Source of the DNA: a virus
Lineage: Duplodnaviria > Caudoviricetes
Virus record (IMG/VR): IMGVR_UViG_2706796142_000001
Span: 11,148-75,147 of that record
Strand: one strand, 5' to 3'
DNA: 64,000 nucleotides
Made by a program: the position numbers and the translations under genes. This document shows positions 10,792 through 42,231 of the stretch, in pieces. Each line of letters begins with the position of its first letter. The first letter of the stretch is position 1. The notes beneath the pieces are model-generated. The model saw only the letters and a list, made by a program, of their open reading frames with translations. It was not told the DNA's origin and ran no database searches.

Positions 10792-13281
10792 ATGCAAGTA
10801 TCCGATAGTGCAAAAGGGGCTAGTTCAGCCACTTTAGGTGCTCAACCAACCCGTAATGTTGCTATGGTTCAGGATGCCAGCTTCTTAATGATGCTGTCCT
10901 CTAACCTGTATTCCAACCAAACTCTGGCCTGTATCCGTGAACCACTGTGTAATGCATGGGATGCTCACATCGATGCAGGTACTACCGATTTACCAATCCG
11001 TATCACGATCACTGAAGACCATGAGTTAATCATAGCAGACAGTGGGCTGGGCATTCCCGATGATAAGATCGAGGCTGTCTACGGTACGTATGGTGCCTCT
11101 ACCAAAAAGAACGACAGCAAGACAACTGGTGGCTTCGGTCTGGGTAGTAAGGCTCCGTGGGCTTATGTAGAAACCTTCCGTGTGATCTCTGAAAACAACG
11201 GGATTAAAACCGTTTACAACATGGAGAAATCCACTGTTGAAAACGAAGGTATGCCGGGTATTACTCCGGTCATGTCTATTCCTACTGATCGCAGTGGTCT
11301 GACAGTTCAGTTCCGTCTGAACGAGGAAGACGTGGAAGAGGTGGTTCGCTACATCAAAGCAATCACACTGCACGGTGATATGAATGTCATTTTTGACAAT
11401 CAGTTATCCGGCGAAGGTGAACAAGTTCTGCCTAAGCTGAACCTCGAACCAGTAGTGGGGAACTATCTCGTTGGTGGTGACGCCTATGAGAACTGGTACT
11501 TCCGTTACATGGGCAAGTCCACCATCTTCATTCGTTACGGTGCCGTGGTCTATCCAATTCTGGAAACCGTTAAAACTGAGAAAGCTGTCAGCCTGCTCAG
11601 GGAATTCATGACGATGGTAGGCTTCCAGCGTCTTCTGGTTCAGGCTGCTCCAGATACTCTGGCACTGACTCCGAACCGTGAAGCGTTGTCCAGTAACCGT
11701 ATGACTGAGGACGGTATCACCGATCTGTGTGTGGCCCTCGTGAATCGCATTGAGGAGGATCTGATTGCTGCTATTCCCACTGCTGTAGCAAATACAGAAC
11801 GTATGCTACGTAAGGGTATGGATGGGTCTACCGTGGATAGCCGTATTAATCCATGGAGTCATATTCGTCCTGATGCAGTTAGTCGTTACCTTAACTGCTC
11901 AGTGGGTAGGCCATTCATGACTAAGTATGATCGTCACCTGAGACATGCTGAACATGCTGGCTTTAAGAAGATGCATCGGTTCAATAATGCCAAGGCAACT
12001 AGTGAGTTTCATAAGCTGCGTAATCGTAATAAAAATCGTCGTCATTACGTGAGTATGCCTGATTTGCGGATCGGCTTTGCTAAACGTTTCATCATGAAAC
12101 CACTGGCTAAAGTTTTCTTAGATAATCCGAAAATCCTCAAGCCTAAAAACCTGATGTTCTCTGAAGAAGAATACTGGGGTCGTAAGATCCACAAGAAAGA
12201 TATCCTTAGTACTCACATACGGGGTACAAAGTTCAACAATCTGAAGGTGCTGATCGACAGACCAACAGTCTTTATTGCTTCCAACATGTCCTGTCTGGAT
12301 GACAGTATTAATGACTGCCCACTCATCGATAAGAAGGATTCTGTCTGGATCTATCGTGTGAATAACCTCGACAAGAACCGTAAGGAAATTGTCAAAGCAT
12401 TTCAGGATGCTGGTTATCAGGCAATTGATCTGGGTGACAACCACAGTTGGGATGGCCCAGCTCAAGCCCGTAAAATGGCCAGAGATGAGAAAGCTGCAAT
12501 TAAAGCTGCACAAATTGCTGCTGGTAAAAAACCAAAAGTGAAGGTAAAGAACAGCCTGCTGTCTATCAGTAACGTCTATGTTAATCGTACTAAGCGTCTA
12601 ACTACTGATGCTATCCGTGGCTTACCACAGACGGCCTCTAAGACCGATAAACCATTGTTCTATGCTGAGATCCGCGACTGCAACAGCAATGGCACTATCG
12701 GGCATTACACGCATATTCTCGACTTGAGCCAAGAAGAGAAAGAGCATGGCGTGATTGCTCGTACTGGTACGGAAGTCAACATGGCGAAGAAACGTGGTGC
12801 AGTCCATGTTAATGCCTACTTCAAGGATCGTTTCATTGAACGTGTCTTCAGTGAAGAATACAAAACTTACATGACGAAAGAACGTAAGGTGGGTATCGCT
12901 GAGGACTTATGTATTAGGTCAGTGGACATGAGACTGTTCAGATTACTTGGCATTAAAATGCCGGGGCTGGACAAACTGAAGTACGATCCTTCTATGGAAC
13001 GTCTCCATCAGATGATCGATGGCATGTGGACTCATCTACGCTATACGCTGTTGAGTGATGATCCTGTTAAAAAGGATTTACTCGACGATGTGGTTCTGAA
13101 ATACCAGCTCCTCCCTACTCCAACAACTGAGAAGTTGATGATTCTCCAGACTGACAAAATCTTGAATAAGTTGGGGAATGGTAAGGGTGTTATGGAGTTA
13201 ATCCAACGTTATCCAGAGCGCAAAGCAGCTCTGAAATCCCTTGTTTTAATCGCGATCAAAACTGGAATAAAGAAACCATGA
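10792..13281 (+). CDS. rIIA: rIIA-like protein with N-terminal GHKL (Hsp90-like) ATPase domain (N4 gp33-like)
   Basis: CIREPLCNAWDAH, IADSGLGI, GGFGLGSK, LTPNREALS; precedes rIIB-like gene. Confidence 0.85.
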   Translation: MQVSDSAKGASSATLGAQPTRNVAMVQDASFLMMLSSNLYSNQTLACIREPLCNAWDAHIDAGTTDLPIRITITEDHELIIADSGLGIPDDKIEAVYGTYGASTKKNDSKTTGGFGLGSKAPWAYVETFRVISENNGIKTVYNMEKSTVENEGMPGITPVMSIPTDRSGLTVQFRLNEEDVEEVVRYIKAITLHGDMNVIFDNQLSGEGEQVLPKLNLEPVVGNYLVGGDAYENWYFRYMGKSTIFIRYGAVVYPILETVKTEKAVSLLREFMTMVGFQRLLVQAAPDTLALTPNREALSSNRMTEDGITDLCVALVNRIEEDLIAAIPTAVANTERMLRKGMDGSTVDSRINPWSHIRPDAVSRYLNCSVGRPFMTKYDRHLRHAEHAGFKKMHRFNNAKATSEFHKLRNRNKNRRHYVSMPDLRIGFAKRFIMKPLAKVFLDNPKILKPKNLMFSEEEYWGRKIHKKDILSTHIRGTKFNNLKVLIDRPTVFIASNMSCLDDSINDCPLIDKKDSVWIYRVNNLDKNRKEIVKAFQDAGYQAIDLGDNHSWDGPAQARKMARDEKAAIKAAQIAAGKKPKVKVKNSLLSISNVYVNRTKRLTTDAIRGLPQTASKTDKPLFYAEIRDCNSNGTIGHYTHILDLSQEEKEHGVIARTGTEVNMAKKRGAVHVNAYFKDRFIERVFSEEYKTYMTKERKVGIAEDLCIRSVDMRLFRLLGIKMPGLDKLKYDPSMERLHQMIDGMWTHLRYTLLSDDPVKKDLLDDVVLKYQLLPTPTTEKLMILQTDKILNKLGNGKGVMELIQRYPERKAALKSLVLIAIKTGIKKP

Positions 13282-29490: not shown

Positions 29491-29691
29491 GTGGAACATA
29501 TCCCTAAAGAAGAATTGATTGTTGGTAAGCGTTACAAGGGTCGTTGTCGTAACGCTACAGAAGCAGTATGGGATGGTAAACAATTCGAGTATACCCGTAG
29601 TAAGTTTGGGCATACATTTCAGGAGAAGATCTATTGTCCTGAAGATGATGATGTTTACGATGTGTTCTATGCTCAACAAGCTATTGACTAG
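29491..29691 (+). CDS. Hypothetical protein
   Basis: GTG start after AGGAG; YKGRCRNATEAVWDG...F.Y.R.KFG conserved phage pattern. Confidence 0.7.
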   Translation: MEHIPKEELIVGKRYKGRCRNATEAVWDGKQFEYTRSKFGHTFQEKIYCPEDDDVYDVFYAQQAID

Positions 29692-29720
29692 CAACATAAG
29701 TTGGTAGTAGTATCATTTTC

Positions 29721-29796
29721 GACGGGTTAGCTCAGTTGGTAGAGCGATTGACTGTTAATCAATTGGTCATCGGTTCAAATCCGGTACTCGTCGCCA
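29721..29796 (+). tRNA. tRNA-Asn(GTT)
   Basis: Cloverleaf; ATTGA-CTGTTAA-TCAAT anticodon arm; GGTTCAAATCC; encoded CCA. Confidence 0.95.
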
Positions 29797-29802
29797 AATT
29801 AT

Positions 29803-29879
29803 ATTCCCGTAGACAAATTGGTACAGTCACCACACTTTCACTGTGGAGTTTGTGGGTTCAAGTCCCATCGGGAATGCCA
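29803..29879 (+). tRNA. tRNA-Glu(TTC)
   Basis: ATTCCCG/CGGGAAT acceptor; CCACA-CTTTCAC-TGTGG; GGTTCAAGTCC; CCA. Confidence 0.9.
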
Positions 29880-29885
29880 AACAAT

Positions 29886-29961
29886 AGTCCTATAGTTCAG
29901 TCGGTAGAATACCTCCCTGTCACGGAGAAGGTCACGGGTTCGAGTCCCGTTAGGACTGCCA
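29886..29961 (+). tRNA. tRNA-Asp(GTC)
   Basis: AGTCCTA/TAGGACT acceptor; CTGTCAC loop; GGTTCGAGTCC; CCA. Confidence 0.93.
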
Positions 29962-29964
29962 AAT

Positions 29965-30040
29965 TGCTTCATAGCTCAGTGGGTAGAGCAACCGCCCGAT
30001 AAGCGGTAGGTCACTGGTTCAAGTCCAGTTGAAGCAACCA
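29965..30040 (+). tRNA. tRNA-Ile(GAT) with C33
   Basis: TGCTTCA/TGAAGCA acceptor; ACCGC-CCGATAA-GCGGT; GGTTCAAGTCC; CCA. Confidence 0.9.
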
Positions 30041-30042
30041 GT

Positions 30043-30123
30043 TTAGAGGTATTCAAGGTCGTTGGTCATAGTGGTTTTCGGTATAGCCCCGAACAACGTA
30101 AAATGATCCCTTGCCTCTAATCA
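30043..30123 (+). ncRNA. Candidate structured ncRNA A
   Basis: TTAGAGG/CCTCTAA, CAAGG/CCTTG, GTTG/CAAC, TTCGG/CCGAA nested stems; non-coding; inside tRNA array. Confidence 0.45.
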
Positions 30124-30124
30124 A

Positions 30125-30192
30125 TTCCGATTCGCTACCGGAAGACCTGTCAACCAGACACTAACTGGTCAATTGGGTGAGAAGCCCATTCA
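30125..30192 (+). ncRNA. Candidate structured ncRNA B
   Basis: TTCCG/CGGAA hairpin, ACCAG/CTGGT hairpin, TGGG-TGAGAAG-CCCA T-loop-like hairpin. Confidence 0.4.
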
Positions 30193-30198
30193 AATTAT

Positions 30199-30293
30199 GG
30201 AAGCTACAAACACAAGTAGGTCAGGTATTCCTTGGGGCAGTGTCTGACGTGAAAGTGGAATTGTGAGTGGTGAGAACCCACGAGCTTCCTGCA
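30199..30293 (+). ncRNA. Candidate tRNA-like ncRNA C
   Basis: 7-bp acceptor-like stem GGAAGCT/AGCTTCC plus TGCA tail; GTGG-TGAGAAC-CCAC T-arm; GTCAG/CTGAC arm without a 7-nt anticodon loop. Confidence 0.55.
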
Positions 30294-30298
30294 AATTA

Positions 30299-30380
30299 GG
30301 GGGATTAGTCAAGCGGTCGAAGACGGCAGACTGTAAATCTGTTATCCCACACGGTAGTTCGAATCTATCATCCCCCACCA
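30299..30380 (+). tRNA. tRNA-Tyr(GTA)
   Basis: GGGGGAT/ATCCCCC acceptor; GCAGA-CTGTAAA-TCTGT; variable arm; CCA. Confidence 0.93.
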
Positions 30381-30384
30381 ATTA

Positions 30385-30461
30385 CGGCATTTAGCTCAGT
30401 TTGGCAGAGCATCGGCTTTGGGAGTCGAGGGTCGAAGGTTCAAATCCTTCAGTGCCGACCA
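30385..30461 (+). tRNA. tRNA-Pro(TGG)
   Basis: CGGCATT/AGTGCCG acceptor; TCGGC-TTTGGGA-GTCGA; GGTTCAAATCC; CCA. Confidence 0.94.
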
Positions 30462-30466
30462 AATTT

Positions 30467-30558
30467 GGAAGATTGGCTGAGTGGCTAAAGGCGTCCGGTT
30501 GCTAACCGGAAGGCGGTGTAACAGCTTCCCACTGGTTCGAATCCAGTATCTTCCTCCA
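30467..30558 (+). tRNA. tRNA-Ser(GCT)
   Basis: GGAAGAT/ATCTTCC acceptor; TCCGG-TTGCTAA-CCGGA; long variable arm; CCA. Confidence 0.93.
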
Positions 30559-30563
30559 TCTTC

Positions 30564-30640
30564 AGGTCGTTAGCTCAGTTGGTTAGAGCACCGGACTTTT
30601 AATCCGGATGTCATTGGTTCGAGGCCAATACGACCTACCA
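30564..30640 (+). tRNA. tRNA-Lys(TTT)
   Basis: AGGTCGT/ACGACCT acceptor; CCGGA-CTTTTAA-TCCGG; CCA. Confidence 0.94.
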
Positions 30641-30642
30641 AA

Positions 30643-30759
30643 TTACAGTCCAGCTTTCTTCTAAATGAAACTCTATTGTGAGTGACAAATAGATCCCCTT
30701 AGGGGTAAGGGAAGTTGATAACAATATGCAGTACCCAACTACTGCTGGACTGTAACCCA
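30643..30759 (+). ncRNA. Candidate CCA-ended ncRNA D
   Basis: Perfect 12-bp terminal stem TTACAGTCCAGC/GCTGGACTGTAA followed by C-CCA; internal hairpins. Confidence 0.6.
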
Positions 30760-30866
30760 TTTCGGCTCGCTAATCCGAAAACTTGATGTGCTGCTTAACT
30801 GGGCTATCCCCCCATCCAAAAGGTTAACTGCACATCGCCTGCCTCGATTGGTTCCCGTAAGGAACT
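30760..30866 (+). ncRNA. Candidate structured ncRNA E
   Basis: TTTCGG/CCGAAA hairpin, GATGTGC/GCACATC with TTAAC/GTTAA, GTTCC/GGAAC hairpin. Confidence 0.4.
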
Positions 30867-30869
30867 ACT

Positions 30870-30905
30870 AAACCCCTGCATACACAACTATGCAGGGGTT
30901 TTTTT
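30870..30905 (+). terminator. Rho-independent terminator ending the tRNA array
   Basis: AACCCCTGCATA-CACAAC-TATGCAGGGGTT plus T tract. Confidence 0.9.
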
Positions 30906-30930: not shown

Positions 30931-31428
30931 ATGAAGTTGAACCAACTGACTGATGAAATCCGTCACATGGTACTGGGTGCTGCACAGCATGTGCTGGCTA
31001 CTCAAGACGACCATGCATCGATGGATCGCTTCCTGACTAAAACCCATAAGCTGCTGGAGCATGAATTTCCTGAACCAGTAGAAGATGATGAGGCAGAGAT
31101 CACCATGATTGCCCGTCTGTGTCACCAAGCGAATAAAGCCTACTGTGAATCGCTGGGGGACTTCTCTCAGCCAGACTGGGAAGATGCACCTTCTGAGATC
31201 CGTGCGTCTGCCATGTTCGGAGTTGAGTTCCATCTGGAAGCTGATCGTACTCCTGCTGAGAGCCATGAAAACTGGATGAAGCAGAAGATACTGGATGGCT
31301 GGATGTATGGCCCGGTTAAGAACTTTGAAACCAAAGAACACCCTCTGCTGGTTGATTACGACCAGTTACCACAGGAACATAAATCGAAAGATTATATCTT
31401 CCGTGGTATCGTTAACGCCTTCAAATAA
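30931..31428 (+). CDS. RyR-domain protein
   Basis: IARLCHQANKAY, ESHENWMKQKILDGWMYGPVK...KEHPLLVDYDQLP...KD. Confidence 0.8.
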   Translation: MKLNQLTDEIRHMVLGAAQHVLATQDDHASMDRFLTKTHKLLEHEFPEPVEDDEAEITMIARLCHQANKAYCESLGDFSQPDWEDAPSEIRASAMFGVEFHLEADRTPAESHENWMKQKILDGWMYGPVKNFETKEHPLLVDYDQLPQEHKSKDYIFRGIVNAFK

Positions 31429-31659: not shown

Positions 31660-34600
31660 TTAGTGAGCCAAGATGTTAACCCAAGGGTTTAGCATCGGTG
31701 ACTGGAGTGCTTGCCCAATACCAAGGGAATAACTCATTCGACCATCGCCCAATACAGTGAACATGTTATCTGTGATCGGTGAACCAATGGTGCCGAACAG
31801 TGTAGGGTGAGGAGTCATTGCACCTACCAGAGCATGTACCGGGTTGTTACGCAGCATGGACATAGCCACTTTTGCGGAACGGATCTTAAAGTTATAGAAC
31901 CAGAGAAGACCCGTCTTTTCCATGTATCCACGGAAGCGACCCGGCAGTCTGTCATAGTTCACATACTCTTCTGTGATACGAGACAGAGCATACTCAGTTG
32001 TCTTCTGCTGACGCTTAGTCAGGTGGTCAAACAGGATTGCTTTGGAGATGAAGTCACCATAGTCCATGGCTTTCTCCAGTCCTTTAAACAGAGCAGTATC
32101 CTGAGTGATCAACGCATAACGACCCATGTCACGAACTTCTTTCGGCAGCTTATCAACCTTCTCTTCAAGGTATGAGTAGAGCTTTCCTGAAGTCAGTGCA
32201 GTCTCTTCACCTGCCAGAGAAGCATCGTTAATTGCTGAGAATTCACCCGCCTGAATCAGAGGCCAGATACTCATTCTTGAATGGCTATCCAAGATGGTCT
32301 GGATCTCAGCTTTCAGTTTACGTGTCTTCACCACATCCCCATTGGCTGCACGAAGTTCTGCTTCGGCTTCGATCTGACGTACACGAGACTTAGTGTACTT
32401 GTCGATCTCTGCCAGTTTACGTGGCAGGCCACGAGCAATATCAGCAATCGGAACACCACGGCTAATCAACTGGTACACGTTACCCAAGGCATTCGATACC
32501 GGTACGATAATCGACTTAACGATGATCATGGTACGGGCATCATGAACCAAGTTCTGAGTAAAGCGTTCAGCATTGGTAGCGTACTGGTACGCCTTGTTGC
32601 CAAACATAGCCAGTGCCACATTCTTGGCAGTGTCTAAGGCTGATTTATTCCAGCGACTATTACCAGTCCAAGCATCACCAATTGAAGCATCGCGGTAGCC
32701 GAAAGCATCAGCCAACATATCACGGCGTACATAGAACTCTTTTCCGAACGTGTCTTCGATGTGCTCCTGTACTTCAGGGGTGAACAACGAGACTGCATCC
32801 GAGAGGACTTTATCCTTAGCCAGTTCCCTTGGATCCATGATGTTGATATACGCTGCTTTGTTGCTCGGATCATTAACCATGTCCTTTTCGTACATGCGAT
32901 GCAGTGAGTCCACCAGTGCTGTGTTTACTGCACCAGCCCGGATCTCTTCGACCTGACGACCACGCCATACACCGATCATCTTCGCAAGGTTAGTTTCCTT
33001 GTTCAGACGAGCTGTCTGCTGTGGAGCCAGGGAACGCTCGTAAGCGATTACAGTACCCTTGTTGTTATAGACGGGTAGCAAATGCTCTCCAGTCTCACCA
33101 CGGGCCATACGCTTCGTAATATTACGGATCTCAGTTGGATCAGTAATACGTCCGGCAACCATAGTGTGAACAGTGTTACCACTGTTAACGTCCACACCAT
33201 TCACGGTCTGACGAATGTTCTGCATGATACCTTGGTTGAATACAGCACGACCGGATACCGGAGCATAGTAGTAACCGTGTTTACCACGATTACCCTCTGC
33301 ACTGGATCCCTTGTAGTCACCCACACGGACATAGCTCATTTTGCTCAGACGATCGTACTCAGCATCGCTGGCAACAATCAGGGATACTCCCTGCTGGTTC
33401 TCAGAAGGAATGTAACCCTTGTACTGGTTGAACTTAGCAGCAGAAGATTTATCAGCTTTACGCTTTTCTTCTACCTGCTGACCTTTCAGATAGGCCATGG
33501 CAAAGTCAATACCTTCGGCTTCGTTATCGACCAGAGTAGACAGGTCATAACGCTCTTTCAGGTTCAACATGTCCAGTGCATACAGACTGGTCAGTTGGTC
33601 AACCATGGCAACAAACTGCTTGTCCTTCAGCTTGAATCCCTTCGCAGGTTTCTCACCCAGCAGACGGGAGATAGCCTCAGCATTACGCAGCAGGTTCTGA
33701 CCGTGTTCACCATTCATCATGTAGCCAGCCAGTTGCTGCATCTTGGCTTGGTACAGATCGAAGTTATCTGGATCAGCATTCTTCAACTGAGTTTCAAGGT
33801 GCTTAACGGCACGTTTGAATTCAGACGGCTTGCTTATCAAAGTGTGGATCTCATCATTGGACAGAGACTGACCCAATGAAGCCAGATCAGCTTTACCCAG
33901 TGACTTATGCAGTAATGTCCATTCTGCTTCGGTCAGGTCACGGCTGAACTTGTCTGCAATCACAGTCGGCAAGTGCTGACGGAATTGCTGACGATCTTGC
34001 TGAACCAGAGCATGAACAGCTTTAATCATGTCGTAAACACCAGCATTGGATTCGGTACGACCAACCATATCGTTGACCAAATCGAACCAAGGCTGTAGGC
34101 CACGACTACGGTTCAGAGCAGTCATCACACCATCAGCAACGTGAGCACCATTCTTCTCAGTAGCAATGGCACCGATCAGTTTGGCAGAAGAAGCCAACGC
34201 CTTAACATACTTGTTGTTGGACTTGTTCTTAACCTTCTCTGCTTTATCGATCAGACCAGAAGACAGGTCATCCATTGCCTGAACAATGTAATCGTTGGCC
34301 CGGTCAATGAAGCCACCAGCTTTAGAAGCGTACTGGTCAAAGAAGGTTTCACGGTTCTGAGCGATATCCAGAATGTGACCAGTCAGGCTATCAACAGCAG
34401 CCTGTACTGAATCACCACGCTCACCAGCCATGGTATTGGACAGTTTGTTAATCAGACGAGTACCAGTGTTTTCCAGCACAGCATCCAGAGTTTTGTCACC
34501 ATTCAGATCCAGTTTAGGAAGTGGCAGTTTCGCCAGTACCTCACGCAGACCATCGTTGACAGTAGCCAGAGCCAAGAAAGAAGGCAGCAGCGAAGAACGA

Positions 34601-37600
34601 CCTGCTGTATCAGTCTCGGTCAGATAGTTACCCATCAGTACGTTGTATTTCTCCTGAGCGTAGTAACGCTCAACATCCTGATCAGCAGCATCTGGATTCA
34701 TCAGATCTTCCACCTTCAGTGTTTTGGTCACATGAGCATAAAGCTCCTGAGCACGAGACATTGAAGCTGGGTCGATTTTAGCCTGAGTCATCAAGGCACC
34801 AACCATTGCAGAGTAGGCAGTACCTTCTTGCATAGACATTGGGAACCCATGAGCATTAACAGATCCCTGTAAACGAACCACTGACATAAGAGCATTGTTC
34901 AGCTCGTTGTCACGTTTGGCACGAGTCAGTACATCTGGTGCGTCATTCAGATACTGAGCAACAGTCTTATCGAAGCCCTCAATCACTTCCTGAAGACGAG
35001 GATTATTCCCGTACTGTGAGTTGTGCATCAGTACTGTGTCTTGGTGAGTACTCAGTGTGGTCGGCATAGACCGCACGAATACAGCCGTGTTGAATGACAC
35101 GTTAGAGAACAGATCTTCACCCGGTTGTTCCGGGAAACGCTTACGTCCAAATGCCAGTTGTTTGATCCAACGAACAGCATCTTTAGCAATGCGAACCAAG
35201 AAGGAAGCTGGGGTGTTTCGGGTCACTGTTTCCAGATTCTGGTTAGCCAGAGTCCATGCCATGAACTCATTCAGAGCATAGGTTTTGGCCTTAGCAGTGT
35301 CCTGCATGATGTACTCAGAGATTGAGTTATAAGCATCGTTGTAAGCACGTTGCTGATCACGAGTCATATCTGATTTGTCCATCTGCATGAACTGGTTCAT
35401 TGACTCTTCCAGTCGCTCTACTGCTTCATCGATCACACCAGACAATGGCCCCATGTCCTGACCACTGTAGTGGGCAAACAGATTATCCATTGTTGCTGAG
35501 TGGATCATCTCATGCAGCACAACTTCCGGTGAGGCGTTAACCAGATAAATCACACCATCCAACGGAGAGTAGAAACCGTTTACAGATGGATCATTGAAGT
35601 ACTCGGACTTCAGCTCAGAGCCGTTATCTTTGTTCCACTGGATCAACTGTTCTGGTGTACCTGTCACCACTTTAAAGTTCTGTGGGCCAACGTTACGCAT
35701 CAGGAAATTGAACATTTTCTTCTGCGTGTCAGTGCCGGTACGGAACAGATTAGTCAGGGCATAACGAGTCATCAGCTTGGCACCAGAAGGTGTTTTAGCT
35801 GCAACCGTTTCAACCTGCTTGGCCTGCTCAACAGTAGCTGGCTTGAAGGTACGTTTTACCGGAGCACGTTTGTTCTCCAGACGAACTGCCAGATTCTTAT
35901 TCAGGGCATCCAGTTTTTCTGCATTGGTAGTTGGTACAGCAGTCTTGTCTCCCACAACATACGGGGAACCAACAGCAGCCATCTGATCAACAGAGATATT
36001 ATGGTTGTCCAGCACAGAGTGTCGGGCATCGATAATGTCAGCAGAGTAATCCAGTGTTGCTTGTAACTCTTGTAGCATATTCATAATGCCAGCATCAGAG
36101 ATAGAAGCAGCATCTTCTTCAGAGATAAACTCTGGGGAGATGGAACGAACAAAGGCTACCCGGCTTGCTTCCGGCATATTGTCTGCAACGTGTTTCATCA
36201 TCTGGTCGAAGCTGTCTTTCACAACACGGATCGGGTTATTCATCCAGCTATCGAACACACCTTGGTTCACTGTGGTGCTGTCCTGAGACAAGCGATCCAG
36301 TGCCATATTCATACCATCAAATACGTACAGGTTGTTCTTCGGTGCTTTAGGAGAGGTGGCAGTGTTCTGCACCATCTGCCCATCACCCATACCAATGTTG
36401 ATGAATGGGATACCGGATACACCGGAATCACTCGGAGCATCTACCGTTGCTGGCATACGCAGTTTGTCACTGAAGGTACGGCTAAAGTCTGTGTTGGCAA
36501 CCTCAGAAGACTGGGAGCCTGCAACATAGAAGTTCTGGGTTCCGGTCTGAATGAACGGAGCCAGTTTAACCAGTCCTTTCTGGATCTCGTTCAGGTCGTT
36601 TTGGGACAGGAACTCTGTACCAACATTACCTTTCTCGTCCAGACGTGCCTGCACTGCTTTCATGTAAGCATCCTGCAACACGATACTCTGTGCCTGAGTT
36701 GCCATGCGAACCAGTGTGGCTGATTGCAGTACTGAATCACCAACGACAGTACGGATCGCATTGTTCATCGGGGCGACGAACAGCGTTTCCATGTTGTCAC
36801 GGATGTTCTTCAGTTCATCCCGACCCAATGTGAATTCCTGAATGGACTTCATAGGGTTAGGCTGAGTAACACGCTCATTCAGAGTCATTGGCTTATTGCC
36901 TTTCTGAACAGCAACACGTTCAGTCAGGTTAGACAATGCACGCTGGAAGAATGCCATCTTAGCCGGATCACCGGGGAACATAGCATCAGCCAGAGTCAGG
37001 CTTGGATCCTGATCCATTGCCTCAGCAGCCAGTGACATACGCTGGTAGATTGAGTCAGCAATAGCCTTAGTCATTTTGCCAGCGATACCAGCAGAGCCGG
37101 AACCATACAGGGTAATGGTCAGTGGGTTCTTAGCGATACCACGTTTCATGTCTGTGATGTTGCCAGACTTGTCCGTGTTGATATCGTCGTTGAACTCACC
37201 CATCAGCCATTGCAGAGATGAAGACTGTTTCAGCAGATCACCTGTCAGCGACTTACGCAGACTTGAGATGTTCTGAGACAATACATCGGTAGTGGCTTGA
37301 TACATATCACGGCTAACCTGATCACCACGGGAACGCAGTTCATTGGCAGTCGTTGTTGCATCACCACCAATTACCACACCACCACGACCGAGGTTATCCA
37401 TCTCGTTCTGGGTGAATGGGCCAGTGGTCATCAGTGCAATTGCGTTAATAACACCGTTGGTCATGCCGTCAGCTTCAACGTACATAGGCGTTTTGAATGC
37501 TGCACGTTCTTCAGGAGTAGCCTGATCCAGACGAGCATATTCCAGCAGAGCCTGCATCTTCATGGCTGAGAGTTTACGGCCACCATTGTCAGACAGCAGG

Positions 37601-40600
37601 GTAGCAGTAATGTCATCAGACAAAGTGCCGGACTCATGGAAGTCACGCATAGCCTGAACAGAGTCAGCGAACTGGTTATTAAACAGTTCCTGTACCTGAG
37701 CCACAGAAGAATCTCTGTCCTGATTGTGGATCTTGATATCCATCATCTGAGCAGCAGCAACCATGAAAGCATCACGGTTCTCTTTCTGGTTCATATCCAG
37801 TGTTGACCACGTTGGCAGGATAGCTTCACGCATCAGTTTGCTGGACTGAGGATTCTGTTTACCCAGCATCTGCAAACGGTTAACACGGGTCATGGCATAG
37901 GCATAACGATGTTCAACCTGATCCAGAGGAATCCCGTTCTGATTACTGTGCAGAGTCGCAGCACCAACAATGTTCTGGAGCTGGTCATAGGCAGCAGTGA
38001 TCGACAGGTTACGTCCTTTCAGAGTCTCCAGATAATTCTTGTTCAGCAGTTCTTCACGGCTGGACAAGTCACCCTCACCGTACACATCAACCACGTTATC
38101 CCGGCCTAACTGAGTCAGGAAATTGACCATAGGCATGTGGAAATAAAACGGTTGATCCTGAGCATTCTTAACAGTGGCTTTCTGCTGGGCAGTCAGTTGC
38201 ACTGAAGCATTGTTCAGTTGGGTTCCGGTTACAGGCAGAGTGTTACCACCGAAGTGGAATGTCTCTTCTGGGTCAACCATCACAGAACGTTCAATAGCGT
38301 CAGGTGCAGCATGTACCGGGCTGTCAGAAGCCAGCAGCTCAACAGGGAACTTACTCTGAGCAGTTGGATTACCGGCAACGATACGGTTGATCTCTTTTAC
38401 ACCGGCACCAGAAGACTTCTCGCCATCATCCAGTAAACGACCCATGCCAATATCGTAACGGCCTTTCTGGATCTGGAAGATACCCACTGAAGGATCAGTC
38501 ATTGCTTCAATGATTTCACCAGCCATAGCCAGTGGGATCCCTTTGGTGTAACCCAGAGGTGCATCATTGTTTTCAGAGACTCCCCAGTACTGCTGGATCT
38601 TCTGAGCCAGTGAAGAGACAGCTTCCACTTGAGACAGGCCACTGTTCAACAGGTCAACCATATCGTCAGTTACGGCAGACTCATCGATACCAAAGAACTT
38701 CGCTGCACCTTCAACATCGGTAGCAGTGGTGTAGTTATTGGCAATCAGAGTCCACTGCATAGCAGCGAGAATGGCATTCTGTAACAGAGCAGGATTATAA
38801 CTGATCTTACCGTCAGCACTGGCTTCAGTCAGGTTAAGCAATTTACCAGCCAGATAAGTATTGGCCTTGGTCTTACCTGAGAGGAATGCCTGTCCTGCGG
38901 TCAGGTCAGACTTACCTTTTTTGTTAGCCCAAGTGTCTAACTGGTTCTGCATCTGTGCAGCAATAGCACGAGCACCATTCAGGAAGGTTCCATACGCCTG
39001 AGTAGTAGCACGAGGCATATCGTAGCCAGCCACGGCATTGCCCTTGATCATATTACTGACCAAAGCAAATCCGTTGGATACCTTAGAGATACGAGACTTC
39101 TCGGTCTTAGGCAGTTTGAATGCTTCGTGGAACTTGTTCCCGGCTACAGGCTGAACCAAAGAAGGATACACCTCAGCAACAGTGGTAGGCTCAGTAACAG
39201 CTTCTTTCACTGGTTCAGGTTTAGTTACTTCTTCTTTAGGAGCAGTCTTAGTCGTTTCTGTGTTTTCTGCTTTATCCTGTTCAGTAACAACAGCTTCTTC
39301 ACGGTTAGTCATTTCGTCAGACATACGTGAGAAATTGTCATTAGTTACAGCGTCATAGCCATCAGTACGCAGACGGTCATGAGCATCATTCATTTGCTCA
39401 TTCAGTTCTGCATCAGACATAGCAGAAATCTGATCATCAGATAATGGGGTAGGCGAGGTGTTCACCACTTCACTATCATTAGATTGATTAACTGATTTAT
39501 CTACCTTACGGGTTCCATCACGGAATGCTTTAGCAATCTCGCTAGGCGTACCCTGAACCAGTAAAGGATTCAGAGGAGTGTTCTCCAAATGCCTTACACC
39601 AAGCTCTGGGAAAGCCGTACCCAAACTGTTCGCCATGTTGGTAACAAACTGGGCTTCAAGCCCTACTTGTTTCGCAAGCGCAACCGAACGAGCATTCTGG
39701 GGATTGACGAAGAGTCCCTTGCTGCTGGTAGCCCAAGTCCGGTCGGGCATGAGGGCATCATAGTTGACCGTACTATTCGTATTCGGATCCGCCGTGACGA
39801 GATGGGTGTTCAACGCACCAACCTTGTTCTGCATGTGCTGGGCGAACTGCTGGAGATCAACAAGCAGATTCCGGGCCAGTTCGAGATTACCCGCCATGTA
39901 CGCAGACCGAATACCCTTCGCATGTTGCAACGCAGATTTTGTGCCTTCTGCACTTCGTGTCTCGTCCGTTTTAATCTGGGCTGACACTACGTCTTGCGGC
40001 TGCATCCCCTGAGCTGCTGCTTCTGCATCATATGCTTTAGCAGAATTCAGGAGAGCTGCTGCGGTTTGTAAGGCAGCACGCTGGGTATCGTTGAGTTGGA
40101 TCTGACCTGTCTGAGCGTGCTTGAGGATCTGATCCACTGCATCCACATTTGCTTTCTCCGGTGCGTATTCCGCAATCGCAATGTGGTTCTGTGCATTCTG
40201 CTGACCCTCTGGAGTAGCAATGTTCTCATCAGTTACAGGCTGAACCAGTCCAGAAGATTCAGCAGTGTTCACCAGATTATCCATGACCTTACCTGCCCGG
40301 CGTACAGACGGGGTATTAGTCACGTTGGCAATCACATCACCCACACCATTGGCAAACTGTACTGCTGGATGATCAGCAGGCAGATCGTCAAGTGCTTCTG
40401 GTGAAGTCTGAATAAACGCAGCCAGTTGACCCAAGTAAGCATTCAGCACCTGCATAACATTCATGCGATCCTGCTGGCTGTTCTTTGGATCAGTCATGAA
40501 GGTAGCCATCTGCTGCAAGGCTTGCACACGGTTAGTGGCACCCTGAACAGCACGACCAGCAGCTTCTGGCATCTGTGGAGCTTCTTCCTCAGCATTGAAG

Positions 40601-42231
40601 TTGAAGGTATCAGCCAGAGCGTTGATGTAATCGTTTGTGGCAGCTTTCTGATCATCAGGTAGTGCTGACTCAGATACAGCAGAAGTCGCTTCCTGTGCAG
40701 CCTGTGGAGCGTTCTGTTGTGCTTCAGCAGCAGCTTGTGCAATCACACTGTCAGCAACAGGTGAAGCCTGTTCATTGGCCTGAGTCACTGCATCCTGACG
40801 GCGTTGGATCAGAGTCTTAGAGGCTTTGGCAGCATTGATAGCAGCCATTGAACCAGTAGAAAGAACAGAGCCTGTTTTACCTGCTGCTTGTAAAGCACCA
40901 GCAGCACCCATTCCATACAGGCCACCAAGACCAGCTTGCTCACCAACACCTTTGGTCAGATCCAGATTAGGATCTACAGTGTTCTGCAATCCAATGTTCT
41001 GGGCAGTCTGCCCGGTAGCTGATTGCAGAGTTTCTTCCACACCTTCTTTCAGTGTGTTCTGACCCAGTTGACGAAGGGAAGATACTGCAAACGGGTTGGC
41101 TTCAAAGCCAGATGCAATACGTCCAGTCAGTGCAGCAGCCGGGCCTTGAATCAGAGCAGCCTGAAGACCAGCACTATGAGCCAGTGAAGTACGGGCATCT
41201 TCCTGTGACATACCCTGACCACCTTGAGAAACAGGTTTAGTCATCTGTACGAAATCAGGAGAGTTTTTGGTTAAGTCAGCAAAAGACATACCAGAAACTT
41301 CAGCAGAGTTCTGCTGGTAAGCCCCACCACCTTCCATCAAACCGATACCGGCAGCGGTAGAACGTTCAGCAGTAGCCAGACGTGACAACGCCGGGATCGC
41401 TTCTGAACCAGCTTTGATTGCTTTACCCAGTGGGCCAGCAGCCAGAATAGAACCGACACCCTGAGAGATACCATCAGCAACGATCTGCCCTGAGTCAGTA
41501 GCATTACTTACTGCATCAATAGCATCACGACCGATACGTTTCAGGCCAGCCATAAAGTTGCCATCGTTGCCAATGTCTTTCTGGTACTGAGCTGTGTTGT
41601 CACGGTAGTCGAGTGTGTTCTCTGTCTGGTTCAGACGGCGACGAGCATTAAGGGAATCAGACTCTGAACCAGTAATGGCATCATTGAGACTTTGGATCTG
41701 AGAAGAAGCCCACTGGCCTGCTTTGTCATCAACCATTCCCAGACCGAATGCAGCAATACCACCCAGACCATTTGCCAGACCTTGACCTACACCCAGTGCA
41801 GAATCACCCAGCATCTCACCAGTGGATCGAGGATTTACTGCATCGTTACGAGTCTGAGTTTCTGCCAGTGCTTGTCCGGCAATAATTTTATTCGCATCGG
41901 TAGTGCCATATTTGAGCATCAGGCTCAATGGATCCAGATTACGAATATCGGCTTCTAAACCAGTGGCACTTGCAGCCCCGGCACCTGTTTGTTTACCAAC
42001 CTGTGCAGAGTAATAGTCAGGCTGTCCAAAGGCAGCAACTTTACCCACAGCAGCATTAGCAACATCGTCCTGCTTCTGGCTGGAGACTCCTGCTACAGCA
42101 TTCATAGTCTGTGCAGGTACACCCGTAGAAGAGTCAGGAGCGATATTAGGAATGAAACTTTCTGGCGATGCTGGCTGGGATACGTTCCCATTTCCAGCAT
42201 ATTGATTTAACAGGTCGATAGGACTTGCCAT
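31660..42231 (-). CDS. Virion-encapsidated RNA polymerase (N4 gp50, vRNAP)
   Basis: 3523 aa; motif A YVEADGMTNG, motif B KRGIAKNPLTITLYG, motif C LYVFDG; hallmark of Schitoviridae. Confidence 0.97.
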   Translation of the reverse strand: MASPIDLLNQYAGNGNVSQPASPESFIPNIAPDSSTGVPAQTMNAVAGVSSQKQDDVANAAVGKVAAFGQPDYYSAQVGKQTGAGAASATGLEADIRNLDPLSLMLKYGTTDANKIIAGQALAETQTRNDAVNPRSTGEMLGDSALGVGQGLANGLGGIAAFGLGMVDDKAGQWASSQIQSLNDAITGSESDSLNARRRLNQTENTLDYRDNTAQYQKDIGNDGNFMAGLKRIGRDAIDAVSNATDSGQIVADGISQGVGSILAAGPLGKAIKAGSEAIPALSRLATAERSTAAGIGLMEGGGAYQQNSAEVSGMSFADLTKNSPDFVQMTKPVSQGGQGMSQEDARTSLAHSAGLQAALIQGPAAALTGRIASGFEANPFAVSSLRQLGQNTLKEGVEETLQSATGQTAQNIGLQNTVDPNLDLTKGVGEQAGLGGLYGMGAAGALQAAGKTGSVLSTGSMAAINAAKASKTLIQRRQDAVTQANEQASPVADSVIAQAAAEAQQNAPQAAQEATSAVSESALPDDQKAATNDYINALADTFNFNAEEEAPQMPEAAGRAVQGATNRVQALQQMATFMTDPKNSQQDRMNVMQVLNAYLGQLAAFIQTSPEALDDLPADHPAVQFANGVGDVIANVTNTPSVRRAGKVMDNLVNTAESSGLVQPVTDENIATPEGQQNAQNHIAIAEYAPEKANVDAVDQILKHAQTGQIQLNDTQRAALQTAAALLNSAKAYDAEAAAQGMQPQDVVSAQIKTDETRSAEGTKSALQHAKGIRSAYMAGNLELARNLLVDLQQFAQHMQNKVGALNTHLVTADPNTNSTVNYDALMPDRTWATSSKGLFVNPQNARSVALAKQVGLEAQFVTNMANSLGTAFPELGVRHLENTPLNPLLVQGTPSEIAKAFRDGTRKVDKSVNQSNDSEVVNTSPTPLSDDQISAMSDAELNEQMNDAHDRLRTDGYDAVTNDNFSRMSDEMTNREEAVVTEQDKAENTETTKTAPKEEVTKPEPVKEAVTEPTTVAEVYPSLVQPVAGNKFHEAFKLPKTEKSRISKVSNGFALVSNMIKGNAVAGYDMPRATTQAYGTFLNGARAIAAQMQNQLDTWANKKGKSDLTAGQAFLSGKTKANTYLAGKLLNLTEASADGKISYNPALLQNAILAAMQWTLIANNYTTATDVEGAAKFFGIDESAVTDDMVDLLNSGLSQVEAVSSLAQKIQQYWGVSENNDAPLGYTKGIPLAMAGEIIEAMTDPSVGIFQIQKGRYDIGMGRLLDDGEKSSGAGVKEINRIVAGNPTAQSKFPVELLASDSPVHAAPDAIERSVMVDPEETFHFGGNTLPVTGTQLNNASVQLTAQQKATVKNAQDQPFYFHMPMVNFLTQLGRDNVVDVYGEGDLSSREELLNKNYLETLKGRNLSITAAYDQLQNIVGAATLHSNQNGIPLDQVEHRYAYAMTRVNRLQMLGKQNPQSSKLMREAILPTWSTLDMNQKENRDAFMVAAAQMMDIKIHNQDRDSSVAQVQELFNNQFADSVQAMRDFHESGTLSDDITATLLSDNGGRKLSAMKMQALLEYARLDQATPEERAAFKTPMYVEADGMTNGVINAIALMTTGPFTQNEMDNLGRGGVVIGGDATTTANELRSRGDQVSRDMYQATTDVLSQNISSLRKSLTGDLLKQSSSLQWLMGEFNDDINTDKSGNITDMKRGIAKNPLTITLYGSGSAGIAGKMTKAIADSIYQRMSLAAEAMDQDPSLTLADAMFPGDPAKMAFFQRALSNLTERVAVQKGNKPMTLNERVTQPNPMKSIQEFTLGRDELKNIRDNMETLFVAPMNNAIRTVVGDSVLQSATLVRMATQAQSIVLQDAYMKAVQARLDEKGNVGTEFLSQNDLNEIQKGLVKLAPFIQTGTQNFYVAGSQSSEVANTDFSRTFSDKLRMPATVDAPSDSGVSGIPFINIGMGDGQMVQNTATSPKAPKNNLYVFDGMNMALDRLSQDSTTVNQGVFDSWMNNPIRVVKDSFDQMMKHVADNMPEASRVAFVRSISPEFISEEDAASISDAGIMNMLQELQATLDYSADIIDARHSVLDNHNISVDQMAAVGSPYVVGDKTAVPTTNAEKLDALNKNLAVRLENKRAPVKRTFKPATVEQAKQVETVAAKTPSGAKLMTRYALTNLFRTGTDTQKKMFNFLMRNVGPQNFKVVTGTPEQLIQWNKDNGSELKSEYFNDPSVNGFYSPLDGVIYLVNASPEVVLHEMIHSATMDNLFAHYSGQDMGPLSGVIDEAVERLEESMNQFMQMDKSDMTRDQQRAYNDAYNSISEYIMQDTAKAKTYALNEFMAWTLANQNLETVTRNTPASFLVRIAKDAVRWIKQLAFGRKRFPEQPGEDLFSNVSFNTAVFVRSMPTTLSTHQDTVLMHNSQYGNNPRLQEVIEGFDKTVAQYLNDAPDVLTRAKRDNELNNALMSVVRLQGSVNAHGFPMSMQEGTAYSAMVGALMTQAKIDPASMSRAQELYAHVTKTLKVEDLMNPDAADQDVERYYAQEKYNVLMGNYLTETDTAGRSSLLPSFLALATVNDGLREVLAKLPLPKLDLNGDKTLDAVLENTGTRLINKLSNTMAGERGDSVQAAVDSLTGHILDIAQNRETFFDQYASKAGGFIDRANDYIVQAMDDLSSGLIDKAEKVKNKSNNKYVKALASSAKLIGAIATEKNGAHVADGVMTALNRSRGLQPWFDLVNDMVGRTESNAGVYDMIKAVHALVQQDRQQFRQHLPTVIADKFSRDLTEAEWTLLHKSLGKADLASLGQSLSNDEIHTLISKPSEFKRAVKHLETQLKNADPDNFDLYQAKMQQLAGYMMNGEHGQNLLRNAEAISRLLGEKPAKGFKLKDKQFVAMVDQLTSLYALDMLNLKERYDLSTLVDNEAEGIDFAMAYLKGQQVEEKRKADKSSAAKFNQYKGYIPSENQQGVSLIVASDAEYDRLSKMSYVRVGDYKGSSAEGNRGKHGYYYAPVSGRAVFNQGIMQNIRQTVNGVDVNSGNTVHTMVAGRITDPTEIRNITKRMARGETGEHLLPVYNNKGTVIAYERSLAPQQTARLNKETNLAKMIGVWRGRQVEEIRAGAVNTALVDSLHRMYEKDMVNDPSNKAAYINIMDPRELAKDKVLSDAVSLFTPEVQEHIEDTFGKEFYVRRDMLADAFGYRDASIGDAWTGNSRWNKSALDTAKNVALAMFGNKAYQYATNAERFTQNLVHDARTMIIVKSIIVPVSNALGNVYQLISRGVPIADIARGLPRKLAEIDKYTKSRVRQIEAEAELRAANGDVVKTRKLKAEIQTILDSHSRMSIWPLIQAGEFSAINDASLAGEETALTSGKLYSYLEEKVDKLPKEVRDMGRYALITQDTALFKGLEKAMDYGDFISKAILFDHLTKRQQKTTEYALSRITEEYVNYDRLPGRFRGYMEKTGLLWFYNFKIRSAKVAMSMLRNNPVHALVGAMTPHPTLFGTIGSPITDNMFTVLGDGRMSYSLGIGQALQSPMLNPWVNILAH

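Follow-up and report, generated by a model that had tools for sequence, protein, structure and literature searches.

The 64,000-nucleotide (nt) stretch of phage DNA analysed here (the window; positions 11,148 to 75,147 of IMG/VR record IMGVR_UViG_2706796142_000001) contains, at positions 29,721 to 30,905, a tRNA operon whose genes are interleaved with structured elements that are not tRNAs. We consider it probable that this is one late unit of eight tRNA genes and at least five small structured non-tRNA RNA genes, whose products would be processed and stable and would likely act in trans. The eight tRNAs (29721-30640), on which ARAGORN and Rfam agree, are in order Asn, Glu, Asp, Ile, Tyr, Pro, Ser and Lys; CCA is encoded in all eight, and the spacers between them are AU-rich and only 3 to 6 nt long (AATTAT, AACAAT, AAT, ATTA, AATTT and TCTTC). 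The promoter-like site, the tRNAs and the terminator share one strand, and two gaps in the array, insert 1 (30041-30298) and insert 2 (30641-30869), hold five discrete modules, M1 to M5, which are encoded on this same strand inside the tRNA unit, as expected for RNAs of the kind of RNAC and RNAD of phage T4 (Table 1). Judged from its sequence, the phage is an N4-like phage of Erwinia amylovora belonging to the genus Johnsonvirus. A minus-strand open reading frame (ORF) of 3,523 amino acids (aa) marks it as N4-like, and its tRNA region is 95% identical to that of Erwinia phage vB_EamP_Rexella (Schitoviridae, Erskinevirinae, genus Johnsonvirus) and, in parts, 93-98% identical to those of Ea9-2 and Tellus.

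Table 1. Positions in the window of the features of the tRNA operon and its surroundings
Feature	Position	Strand	Remarks
Sigma-70-like promoter TTGACT-18-TAGTAT	29684..29713	+	just upstream of tRNA-Asn; consensus match only
tRNA-Asn(GUU), tRNA-Glu(UUC), tRNA-Asp(GUC), tRNA-Ile(GAU)	29721..30040	+	ARAGORN, Rfam
M1, 83-nt long-stem RNA	30041..30123	+	ends UCA, then AUU; fold z = -3.3
M2, three-hairpin RNA, 67 nt	30125..30191	+	ends UUCA, then AAUU; covariance model R1, comparison, minimum free energy (MFE) fold
M2, first hairpin (H1)	30125-30143	+	UUCCG/AUUCGCUAC/CGGAA
M2, second hairpin (H2)	30153-30169	+	ACCAG/CUGGU
M2, conserved 20-nt block	30170-30189	+	CAAUUGGGUGAGAAGCCCAU
M2, third hairpin (H3)	30174-30188	+	
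M3, possibly tRNA-shaped RNA	30199..30293	+	ends UGCA, then AAUU; MFE fold, z = -1.6
M3, 7-bp stem	30199-30205 with 30283-30289	+	GGAAGCU with AGCUUCC
tRNA-Tyr(GUA), tRNA-Pro(UGG), tRNA-Ser(GCU), tRNA-Lys(UUU)	30299..30640	+	ARAGORN, Rfam
M4, branched RNA, about 115 nt	30645..30759	+	ends AACCCA; fold z = -3.9
M4, 10-bp closing stem	30645-30654 with 30744-30753	+	
M5, 3' external spacer RNA	30760..30869	+	comparison, UCGCUA hairpin
M5, H1-type hairpin	30760-30780	+	UUUCGG/CUCGCUAAU/CCGAAA
M5, long hairpin	30784-30837	+	hypervariable tip
M5, unpaired stretch	30837-30851	+	CGCCUGCCUCGAUUGG
Strong intrinsic terminator	30870-30901 (to 30907 as listed)	+	13-bp stem and U run, operon end
165-aa RyR-domain protein	30931-31428		directly after the operon terminator
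3,523-aa ORF	31660-42231	-	marks the phage as N4-like

An earlier note, made from the sequence alone, had described eight canonical tRNAs with spacers of 3-6 nt, ORF-free inserts, module ends in NCA followed by tRNA-like spacers, and a hairpin with TCGCTA in its loop in each insert, and all of this was borne out. The modules read ...CCUCUAA UCA followed by AUU (M1), ...GCCCA UUCA followed by AAUU (M2), ...AGCUUCC UGCA followed by AAUU (M3), and ...GGACUGU AACCCA followed by UUU (M4). The ORFs at the inserts are only short, tRNA-overlapping or antisense, none of them is conserved, and the antisense 41-aa ORF across M4 is disrupted by 1-nt indels in phage phiEaP8. The note had also seen the inserts as packed with complementary stems; compared with shuffled sequences this held for insert 2 as a whole (z = -3.8) and for M1 and M4 (-3.3 and -3.9), but not for insert 1 as a whole, and M2, M3 and M5 were marginal (z of about -1.6 to -1.9). 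These observations support a description of the inserts as discrete structured RNA modules arranged like tRNAs, each with a terminal stem, a ..CA end and an AU-rich spacer.

A check against Rfam and ARAGORN, as the note had proposed, gave no match to a tRNA pseudogene. Rfam found no family in either insert at E<=10, the tRNA model RF00005 included, and only tRNAs in the whole window, both at the gathering score and at E<=10. Across nine related loci, at E<=0.1, it returned tRNAs and sub-threshold hits only and no Rfam family for any module; the sub-threshold hits were tmRNA matches of 19-20 bits on a tRNA-like module that Tellus shares with the T4-like Kosakonia phage Kc304 and that the window lacks. 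ARAGORN relaxed to 80% thresholds was empty on the + strand of the inserts, and their interpretation as pseudo-tRNAs was rejected on these grounds. The absence of a tRNA remnant in both searches also argues against the possibility that the inserts are neutral, being decayed tRNA genes or recombination scars of cassette turnover, which we regard as very improbable and which is considered again with the relatives of the window phage below.

M2 is, as the comparison indicates, a member of a real RNA family of phage tRNA arrays that is absent from Rfam. In its MFE fold M2 has the architecture H1, linker, H2, CAAU and H3, on the tRNA strand and inside the tRNA array, with GACCU following H1. The conserved block that contains H3 has the near-invariant family consensus CAAUYGGGUGAGAAGCCCRU, and was found in 64 phage records: Erwinia Schitoviridae (Ea9-2, Tellus, phiEaP8, Kuerle and the Fifi phages), Salmonella phage UTK0001 from another Schitoviridae subfamily, about 45 Ackermannviridae infecting Klebsiella, Serratia and Escherichia, and Pantoea phage TacPo2; Salmonella phage CRW-SP2 has it as well, as do uncultured lake and marine phage contigs (IMG/VR, metagenome). 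In every true case the block is on the tRNA strand, inside a tRNA array, and 4-11 nt before the 5' end of a tRNA or tRNA-like element. The tRNA downstream is Tyr in the enterobacterial phages and Leu, Gly, Ser, Val or Met in the lake phages, with Gln also listed, and a specificity of the block for tRNA-Tyr was rejected because of the lake phages; in the window, the RNA behind M2 is M3 and not a tRNA. When 596 Gb of bacterial genomes were scanned for the exact pattern of the block, 95 hits were obtained versus about 69 expected by chance, and only one of the 95 was in a tRNA array, on a contig of a metagenome-assembled genome with a phage-derived look. Therefore, the M2 block is specific to phages and is not a feature of host tRNA operons.

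The helices of this family are preserved by compensatory changes. A covariance model (R1) built from five lake-phage copies, with no Schitoviridae sequence, matched M2 at 30140-30191 with 30.6 bits (E = 5.8e-6), which was the only significant match in the window. The lake-phage form is a compact three-hairpin RNA of 62 nt, whose nine distinct copies are 99.3% paired, compared with 27-44% in slid controls, and which has double-sided changes in five pairs (16 cells); helices 1 and 2 covary, and helix 3 is without variation. For the outer pair of H3, most copies have U-A, and those of Ackermannviridae have C-G. In the Schitoviridae, compensatory versions were found both of the H1 stem (UUCCG/CGGAA or CUUCAG/CUGAAG) and of the H2 stem (CGUAG/CUACG, GCCAG/CUGGC, UCCAG/CUGGA and ACCAG/CUGGU). 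The loop sequences of H1 and H2 in M2 are unlike those of the lake-phage form, and the length of the RNA varies considerably: the 67-nt version of the window is the shortest in Schitoviridae, the relatives have 100-117 nt with an extra domain between H2 and H3, and the Ackermannviridae have about 211 nt.

The position of the M2 block gives rise to a serious rival explanation for M2, in which the modules are cis-acting "punctuation" without a function of its own, made up of structured leaders and trailers, that guides cleavage by RNase E and RNase P, blocks 3' exonucleases or aids the folding of neighbouring pre-tRNAs, and is then discarded. A place always 4-11 nt ahead of a tRNA or tRNA-like 5' end is what such an element would show, all modules are flanked by AU-rich spacers of the tRNA type, and M5 is literally a 3' external spacer with a terminator. 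However, generic processing does not need a 20-nt sequence that is invariant across unrelated phage families and hosts, most tRNA junctions of the operon have no such element, M2 itself precedes M3 instead of a tRNA, and an H1-type hairpin also occurs in an RNA locus of Erwinia phage MIF8 that has no tRNA. On balance, we hold this explanation to be unlikely for the modules as a whole.

The second motif that extends beyond the Schitoviridae is the hairpin with UCGCUA in its loop, with which both M2 and M5 begin (Table 1). The window has no others of this type. A count over 3.5 Mb of unrelated DNA gave 34, or about 1 per 100 kb of strand, and two sense-strand copies in an operon of 1.2 kb are thus far above chance. 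An opposite-strand copy in one of the compared loci was set aside as part of a coding region. The 5' hairpin of T4 species 2 RNA (rnaD) reads ACCGG-GUCGCUA-CCGGU and is followed by AAGUC, while in M2 UUCCG-AUUCGCUAC-CGGAA is followed by GACC, which gives the same type of 5' hairpin with AAG(A/U)C; M5 has the hairpin, but AACU comes next. With the rnaD homologues included, the stems covary (ACCGG/CCGGU, GCCGG/CCGGC in BCPShso, UUCCG/CGGAA and UCUUCAG/CUGAAGA). Nevertheless, M2 and M5 were rejected as homologues of rnaD. A covariance model of rnaD (R2; T4, PSTCR6, LQ5 and BCPShso), which scores 121-137 bits on its own members, had no match in the window at E<=10 and gave only 12 and 8 bits on the H1 hairpins of MIF8 and Ea9-2, and neither M2 nor M5 has the closing stem of the rnaD consensus, in which columns 27-33 pair with columns 115-120 ahead of a CACC(A) end. 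Since the full model does not match, the UCGCUA hairpin is a shared motif and not a sign of membership in the rnaD family.

The parallel with T4, where two stable non-tRNA RNAs come from the tRNA cluster, had been drawn in the earlier note and proved apt; rnaC and rnaD are located within that cluster, and one hairpin motif is shared. RNAC and RNAD are produced in infected cells, RNAC having been seen by Northern blot (PMC9697503), and their roles are still unknown (PMC3014915, PMC9697503). RNAD resembles the modules described here in being a non-tRNA RNA inside a tRNA cluster that adjoins tRNAs with AAUU spacers and in its 5' GUCGCUA hairpin followed by AAGUC, which is the motif of H1 in M2 and M5, and it resembles M5 in having conserved ends around a hypervariable central hairpin. 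In contrast, T4 rnaD has a long closing stem and a CACCA end, whereas M2 has three hairpins, no closing stem and a UUCA end, and M5 continues into the terminator. RNAC is a tRNA-shaped stable RNA without an anticodon, and its counterparts in concept are M3 and the oversized tRNA-like modules that relatives such as Kuerle, UTK0001, Ea9-2 and CRW-SP2 carry; its canonical T arm, CCGGG-UUCGAAU-CCCGG, differs from the UGAGAAC loop of M3, and no sequence similarity between the two was found. As a separate observation on T4, the rnaD loop CGCUAC is a perfect complement of GUAGCG, which is present twice in the adjacent rnaC (1409-1672 of the analysed T4 locus, minus strand), in one case at a site that could be a hairpin loop; this hints at a kissing contact between RNAC and RNAD, and the rnaD loop itself shows no variation. 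In MIF8, a gap of about 400 nt with neither an ORF nor a tRNA (1691-2075 of the analysed locus) ends with the exact M2-type hairpin UUCCG-AUUCGCUAC-CGGAA GACC, then CUACUAA and a terminator, and the CUACUAA(A)-terminator ending is common to this gap and to the operons of the window and of Kuerle.

The modules of insert 2 could be compared across genera in part. M4 has its 10-bp closing stem and an internal hairpin, CCCUUA-GGGG-UAAGGG, and it is kept between the genera Johnsonvirus and Yonginvirus. In the homologue of phiEaP8 the closing stem is retained with one double change and one G-U pair, the internal hairpin (CCCNNA-GGGG-UNNGGG) has two double changes, and the RNA ends in AACCA AAUU, so that the comparison gives three compensatory double changes with 97.9% of the positions paired. 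An IMG/VR scan with a 14-nt M4 pattern yielded chance matches only, and the DNA of these matches served as background. Compensatory base changes among homologues were present in M4, as they were in the first two helices of the M2 family, and they were also found for M5, in which the base of the long hairpin, GAUGUGC/GCACAUC, is changed to GGUAUG./.CAUACC in Rexella while the tip is replaced. In M5 this hairpin is followed by an unpaired stretch, then by a small hairpin and then by CUACUAAA, with the terminator next. The unpaired stretch CGCCUGCCUCGAUUGG is kept as AGCCUGCCUCGUUG after the last tRNA-Ser in the Yonginvirus phages Kuerle and Fifi450, where the flanks differ, and it looks like the seed of a small RNA with the anti-Shine-Dalgarno sequence CCUC. 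The closest comparison for M5 is 3'ETS-leuZ, from the 3' spacer of an Escherichia coli tRNA operon, which is described as a trans-acting small RNA sponge (Lalaouna et al. 2015, as cited in PMC6191717). As presented there, that RNA comes from the 3' spacer of its operon and bears the operon terminator, an origin that M5 would match. It differs from M5 in being encoded by the host and in pairing with RyhB and RybB; a search of the window gave no pairing partner for M5.

M1 and M3 have features that resemble those of tRNAs. In M1 a 7-bp terminal stem, UUAGAGG/CCUCUAA, is stacked on a 5-bp stem, CAAGG/CCUUG, with a continuous 3' strand of 12 nt, which is the geometry of the acceptor/T minihelix of a tRNA. 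In M3 a 7-bp acceptor-like stem can form beside a T-arm-like hairpin, GUGG-UGAGAAC-CCAC, whose loop resembles that of H3 in M2, and there is no anticodon loop; a tRNA shape of M3 is plausible on the predicted fold. The first 46 nt of M3 are 96% identical to a spacer in phage Kc304, in which the M3-like piece is fused to another tRNA-like module, found also in Ea9-2 and Tellus, and must fold locally. This Kc304 spacer follows tRNA-Asp and is a chimera of approximately the first 40 nt of M3 and a tRNA-like module of about 95 nt (1503-1654 of the analysed Kc304 locus); the latter, GGGCAGG...CCUGUCC ACCA with a canonical T arm, stands after tRNA-Tyr in Ea9-2 (1219-1321) and Tellus (1286-1390). It was also observed that the apical loop of M1, UAUAGCCC (30082-30089), is complementary to GGGCUAU (30801-30807) near the tip of the long hairpin of M5. 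GGGCUAU is kept in Rexella despite the otherwise replaced tip; the M1-M5 complementarity by itself is at about chance level.

The tRNA-like features could be taken to mean that the modules are decoys or inhibitors that mimic tRNAs and act against PrrC, RloC, PARIS, retron-associated tRNases or toxins that attack acceptor ends, as had been suggested in the earlier note. M1, M3 and M4 have acceptor-like terminal stems and ..CA or CCA-like ends, the M4 homologue of phiEaP8 ends in ACCA, M3 has its T-arm-like hairpin, and the tRNAs of the operon for Asn, Asp, Tyr, Lys and Glu are isoacceptors that are commonly hit by anticodon nucleases. However, none of the modules has a 7-nt loop of the anticodon type with U33 and hence none mimics the substrate of an anticodon nuclease, which disfavours that form of the idea; only M3 is tRNA-shaped, and it has a local alternative fold. 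In addition, M2 and M5 are without an acceptor stem, the tRNA model does not match the inserts even at E<=10, and the occurrence of the M2 family in phages of very different hosts points to a universal partner instead of a strain-specific defence protein; nor was a link to any defence system seen, although no test was aimed at one. For a role against acceptor-end toxins or other tRNA-binding proteins the evidence is neutral. Decoys of this kind are, taken together, rather improbable.

Comparison of the relatives showed that the same slots of the array hold different modules in Rexella, Ea9-2, Tellus, phiEaP8 and Kuerle. In the slot of M1 the relatives have unrelated RNAs with similar UUUGAG...CUCAAUCA ends, and altogether five unrelated inserts with ends of this type were found behind tRNA-Ile or tRNA-Asp. 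The tRNA-Pro of the window is absent in Rexella and has a 103-nt tRNA-like RNA in its place in Ea9-2, and extra modules are present in Tellus and phiEaP8. Because the contents of the slots differ in each relative, tRNAs and modules behave as interchangeable units, and pieces evidently move between phage families too, as far as sequence comparison can tell. In Serratia phage IME250 the gap of 884 nt between tRNA-Asn and tRNA-Tyr (742-1625 of the analysed locus) is full of modules with (C)CA AAUU endings. They include several oversized tRNA-like RNAs whose T arms are canonical, the 211-nt version of the M2-family RNA, and an RNA of the GCUACAGUAG type that is also found in Ea9-2 and UTK0001 and whose stems covary. 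Some of these elements are apparently misannotated, such as a tRNA-like module in Fifi450 (1786-1900 of the analysed locus) that is listed as a 115-nt "tRNA-Cys(aca)" and the "hypothetical proteins" of 30-43 aa inside the inserts of Tellus (981-1170 and 1861-1992 of the analysed locus). Recognition of the RNA modules corrects such annotations of ORFs or an odd tRNA-Cys in Tellus, Ea9-2 and Fifi450.

This turnover is also what would be expected if the inserts were decayed tRNA genes or scars, since tRNA-Pro is missing from Rexella and slot contents differ among relatives, M3 and the Kc304 spacer look chimeric, and oversized tRNA-like elements with canonical T arms occur in the relatives. For M2 and M4 the decay explanation is disfavoured, because the M2 block hardly differs between phage families, with covariation in the stems around it, and because M4 is kept from Johnsonvirus to Yonginvirus with compensatory changes. 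Alternatively, the elements might act as DNA, as promoters, as sites for homing endonucleases or recombination, or as inverted repeats resembling miniature inverted-repeat transposable elements. The terminal inverted repeats UUUGAG...CUCAA that flank the otherwise unrelated inserts of the M1 slot are in keeping with such a function, and homing endonucleases do live in phage tRNA clusters, for example T4 segB and in PSTCR6. Against it, all elements keep the orientation of the tRNA strand, G-U pairs and compensatory changes preserve helices at the RNA level, the same block is found under unrelated transcription systems (N4-like, T4-like and ViI-like), and the ORF list shows no nuclease gene in the operon, so that an action as DNA is extremely improbable. 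A Pfam search of seven neighbouring ORFs detected only an RyR domain downstream (PF02026, E = 6.5e-11) and no tRNA-repair or RNA-binding enzyme; the RyR-domain gene is likewise located behind the tRNA/RNA operon in Rexella, Kuerle and Fifi450.

Two further systems invite comparison. In the N4-like Pseudomonas phage LUZ7, a hotspot between orf69 and orf70 produces sRNA1-3, RNAs of less than 250 nt that are abundant in late infection and of which one apparently arises by processing (PMC9163698). The hotspot is syntenic with the operon described here, being preceded by the SSB-side replication genes and followed by the convergent gene for the virion RNA polymerase, and it is strongly structured (845-1242 of the analysed locus, z = -6.2 versus shuffles). 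Unlike the window, it has no tRNAs, no M2 block and no UCGCUA hairpin, and no sequence similarity was seen. The bacterial Y RNAs, including YrlA (Rfam RF02553), are tRNA-mimicking non-coding RNAs, some of which are encoded by phages (PMC4201824). The modules were rejected as members of this family, since scores were at most 25 bits versus a gathering score of 69 and the matches were on true tRNAs and not on the modules. A literature search found no paper describing M1 to M5.

We would read the modules, at 65-115 nt each, as new members of the loosely defined kind of RNA to which T4 RNAC and RNAD belong. Several observations weigh against their being processed, stable and trans-acting RNAs. Insert 1 as a whole folds no better than its shuffles (z = -1.0), and the homologues of M1 and M3 are limited to a near-identical copy in Rexella, so that their folds are based on energy alone; for M3, moreover, z is only -1.6 and the 5' part can form a local hairpin instead. 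The score of model R1 on M2 comes mostly from the invariant 3' block, and the comparison of M4 comprises only three distinct sequences. The modules end in NCA and not in CCA, with UUA or AGA in relatives, and a tRNA-like 3' maturation is thus not assured. Finally, complements of both UCGCUA loops and of the unpaired stretch of M5 occur in the window at chance level only.

With these points taken into account, we infer that the operon is transcribed as one unit and that its RNAs mature by a route known from E. coli, where the processing of tRNA operons by RNase E, RNase P and exonucleases is established. RNase E would most likely be the enzyme that cleaves the polycistronic precursor, at the AU-rich (A)AUU spacers. 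RNase P would cut at the 5' side of the acceptor-like stems of 7-12 bp in M1, M3 and M4, and exonucleases would trim these modules back to their ..CA ends, while M5, a 3' external spacer RNA that bears the terminator, would be set free in the way described for 3'ETS-leuZ. This reading has indirect experimental support in the detection of T4 RNAC and RNAD in infected cells and in the abundant, partly processed RNAs from the syntenic region of LUZ7. The modules would then accumulate beside the tRNAs as stable RNAs and most likely would act in trans as folded RNAs. The contacts would be made by their conserved loops, namely the M2 hairpin GGGU-GAGAA-GCCC, which is invariant, and the loop UCGCUA that occurs in M2, M5 and T4 RNAD, and the component contacted would be one that hosts widely conserve in tRNA biology, RNA processing or translation; since the loops do not vary among phages whose hosts are unrelated, we favour as the partner a host factor of the tRNA or translation pathway that is itself conserved. 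In a more specific form of this proposal, which is unlikely as it stands, the M2 family would dock in trans on a universally conserved RNA or protein of the host tRNA pathway through the GGGU-GAGAA-GCCC hairpin with its T-loop-like UGAGA, to which a GUGAAAG motif may be added in the compact lake-phage form and in M3. A possible target by analogy would be the tRNA elbow, which is contacted by the double T-loop modules of RNase P and T-box leaders, and the UCGCUA hairpin would serve as another recognition element of equal generality. M2-type modules would in that case be a tool by which phages redirect the processing or the use of host tRNAs, and they would provide a testable handle on the 50-year-old question of T4 RNAC and RNAD.

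It was in T4, in the 1970s, that phage tRNA clusters were first seen to encode non-tRNA RNAs, and what these RNAs do is still not understood (PMC3014915, PMC9697503). The locus described here shows that such RNAs are not an oddity of T4. The near-invariant 20-nt hairpin of the M2 family is found in at least three phage lineages and in many uncultured phages, in tRNA arrays only, and the UCGCUA motif ties the modules of an N4-like phage directly to T4 RNAD. Two sharply defined conserved motifs make the old T4 question experimentally approachable, and, as the invariance of the loops in phages of unrelated hosts indicates a conserved cellular partner, the design of pull-down and deletion experiments is straightforward.

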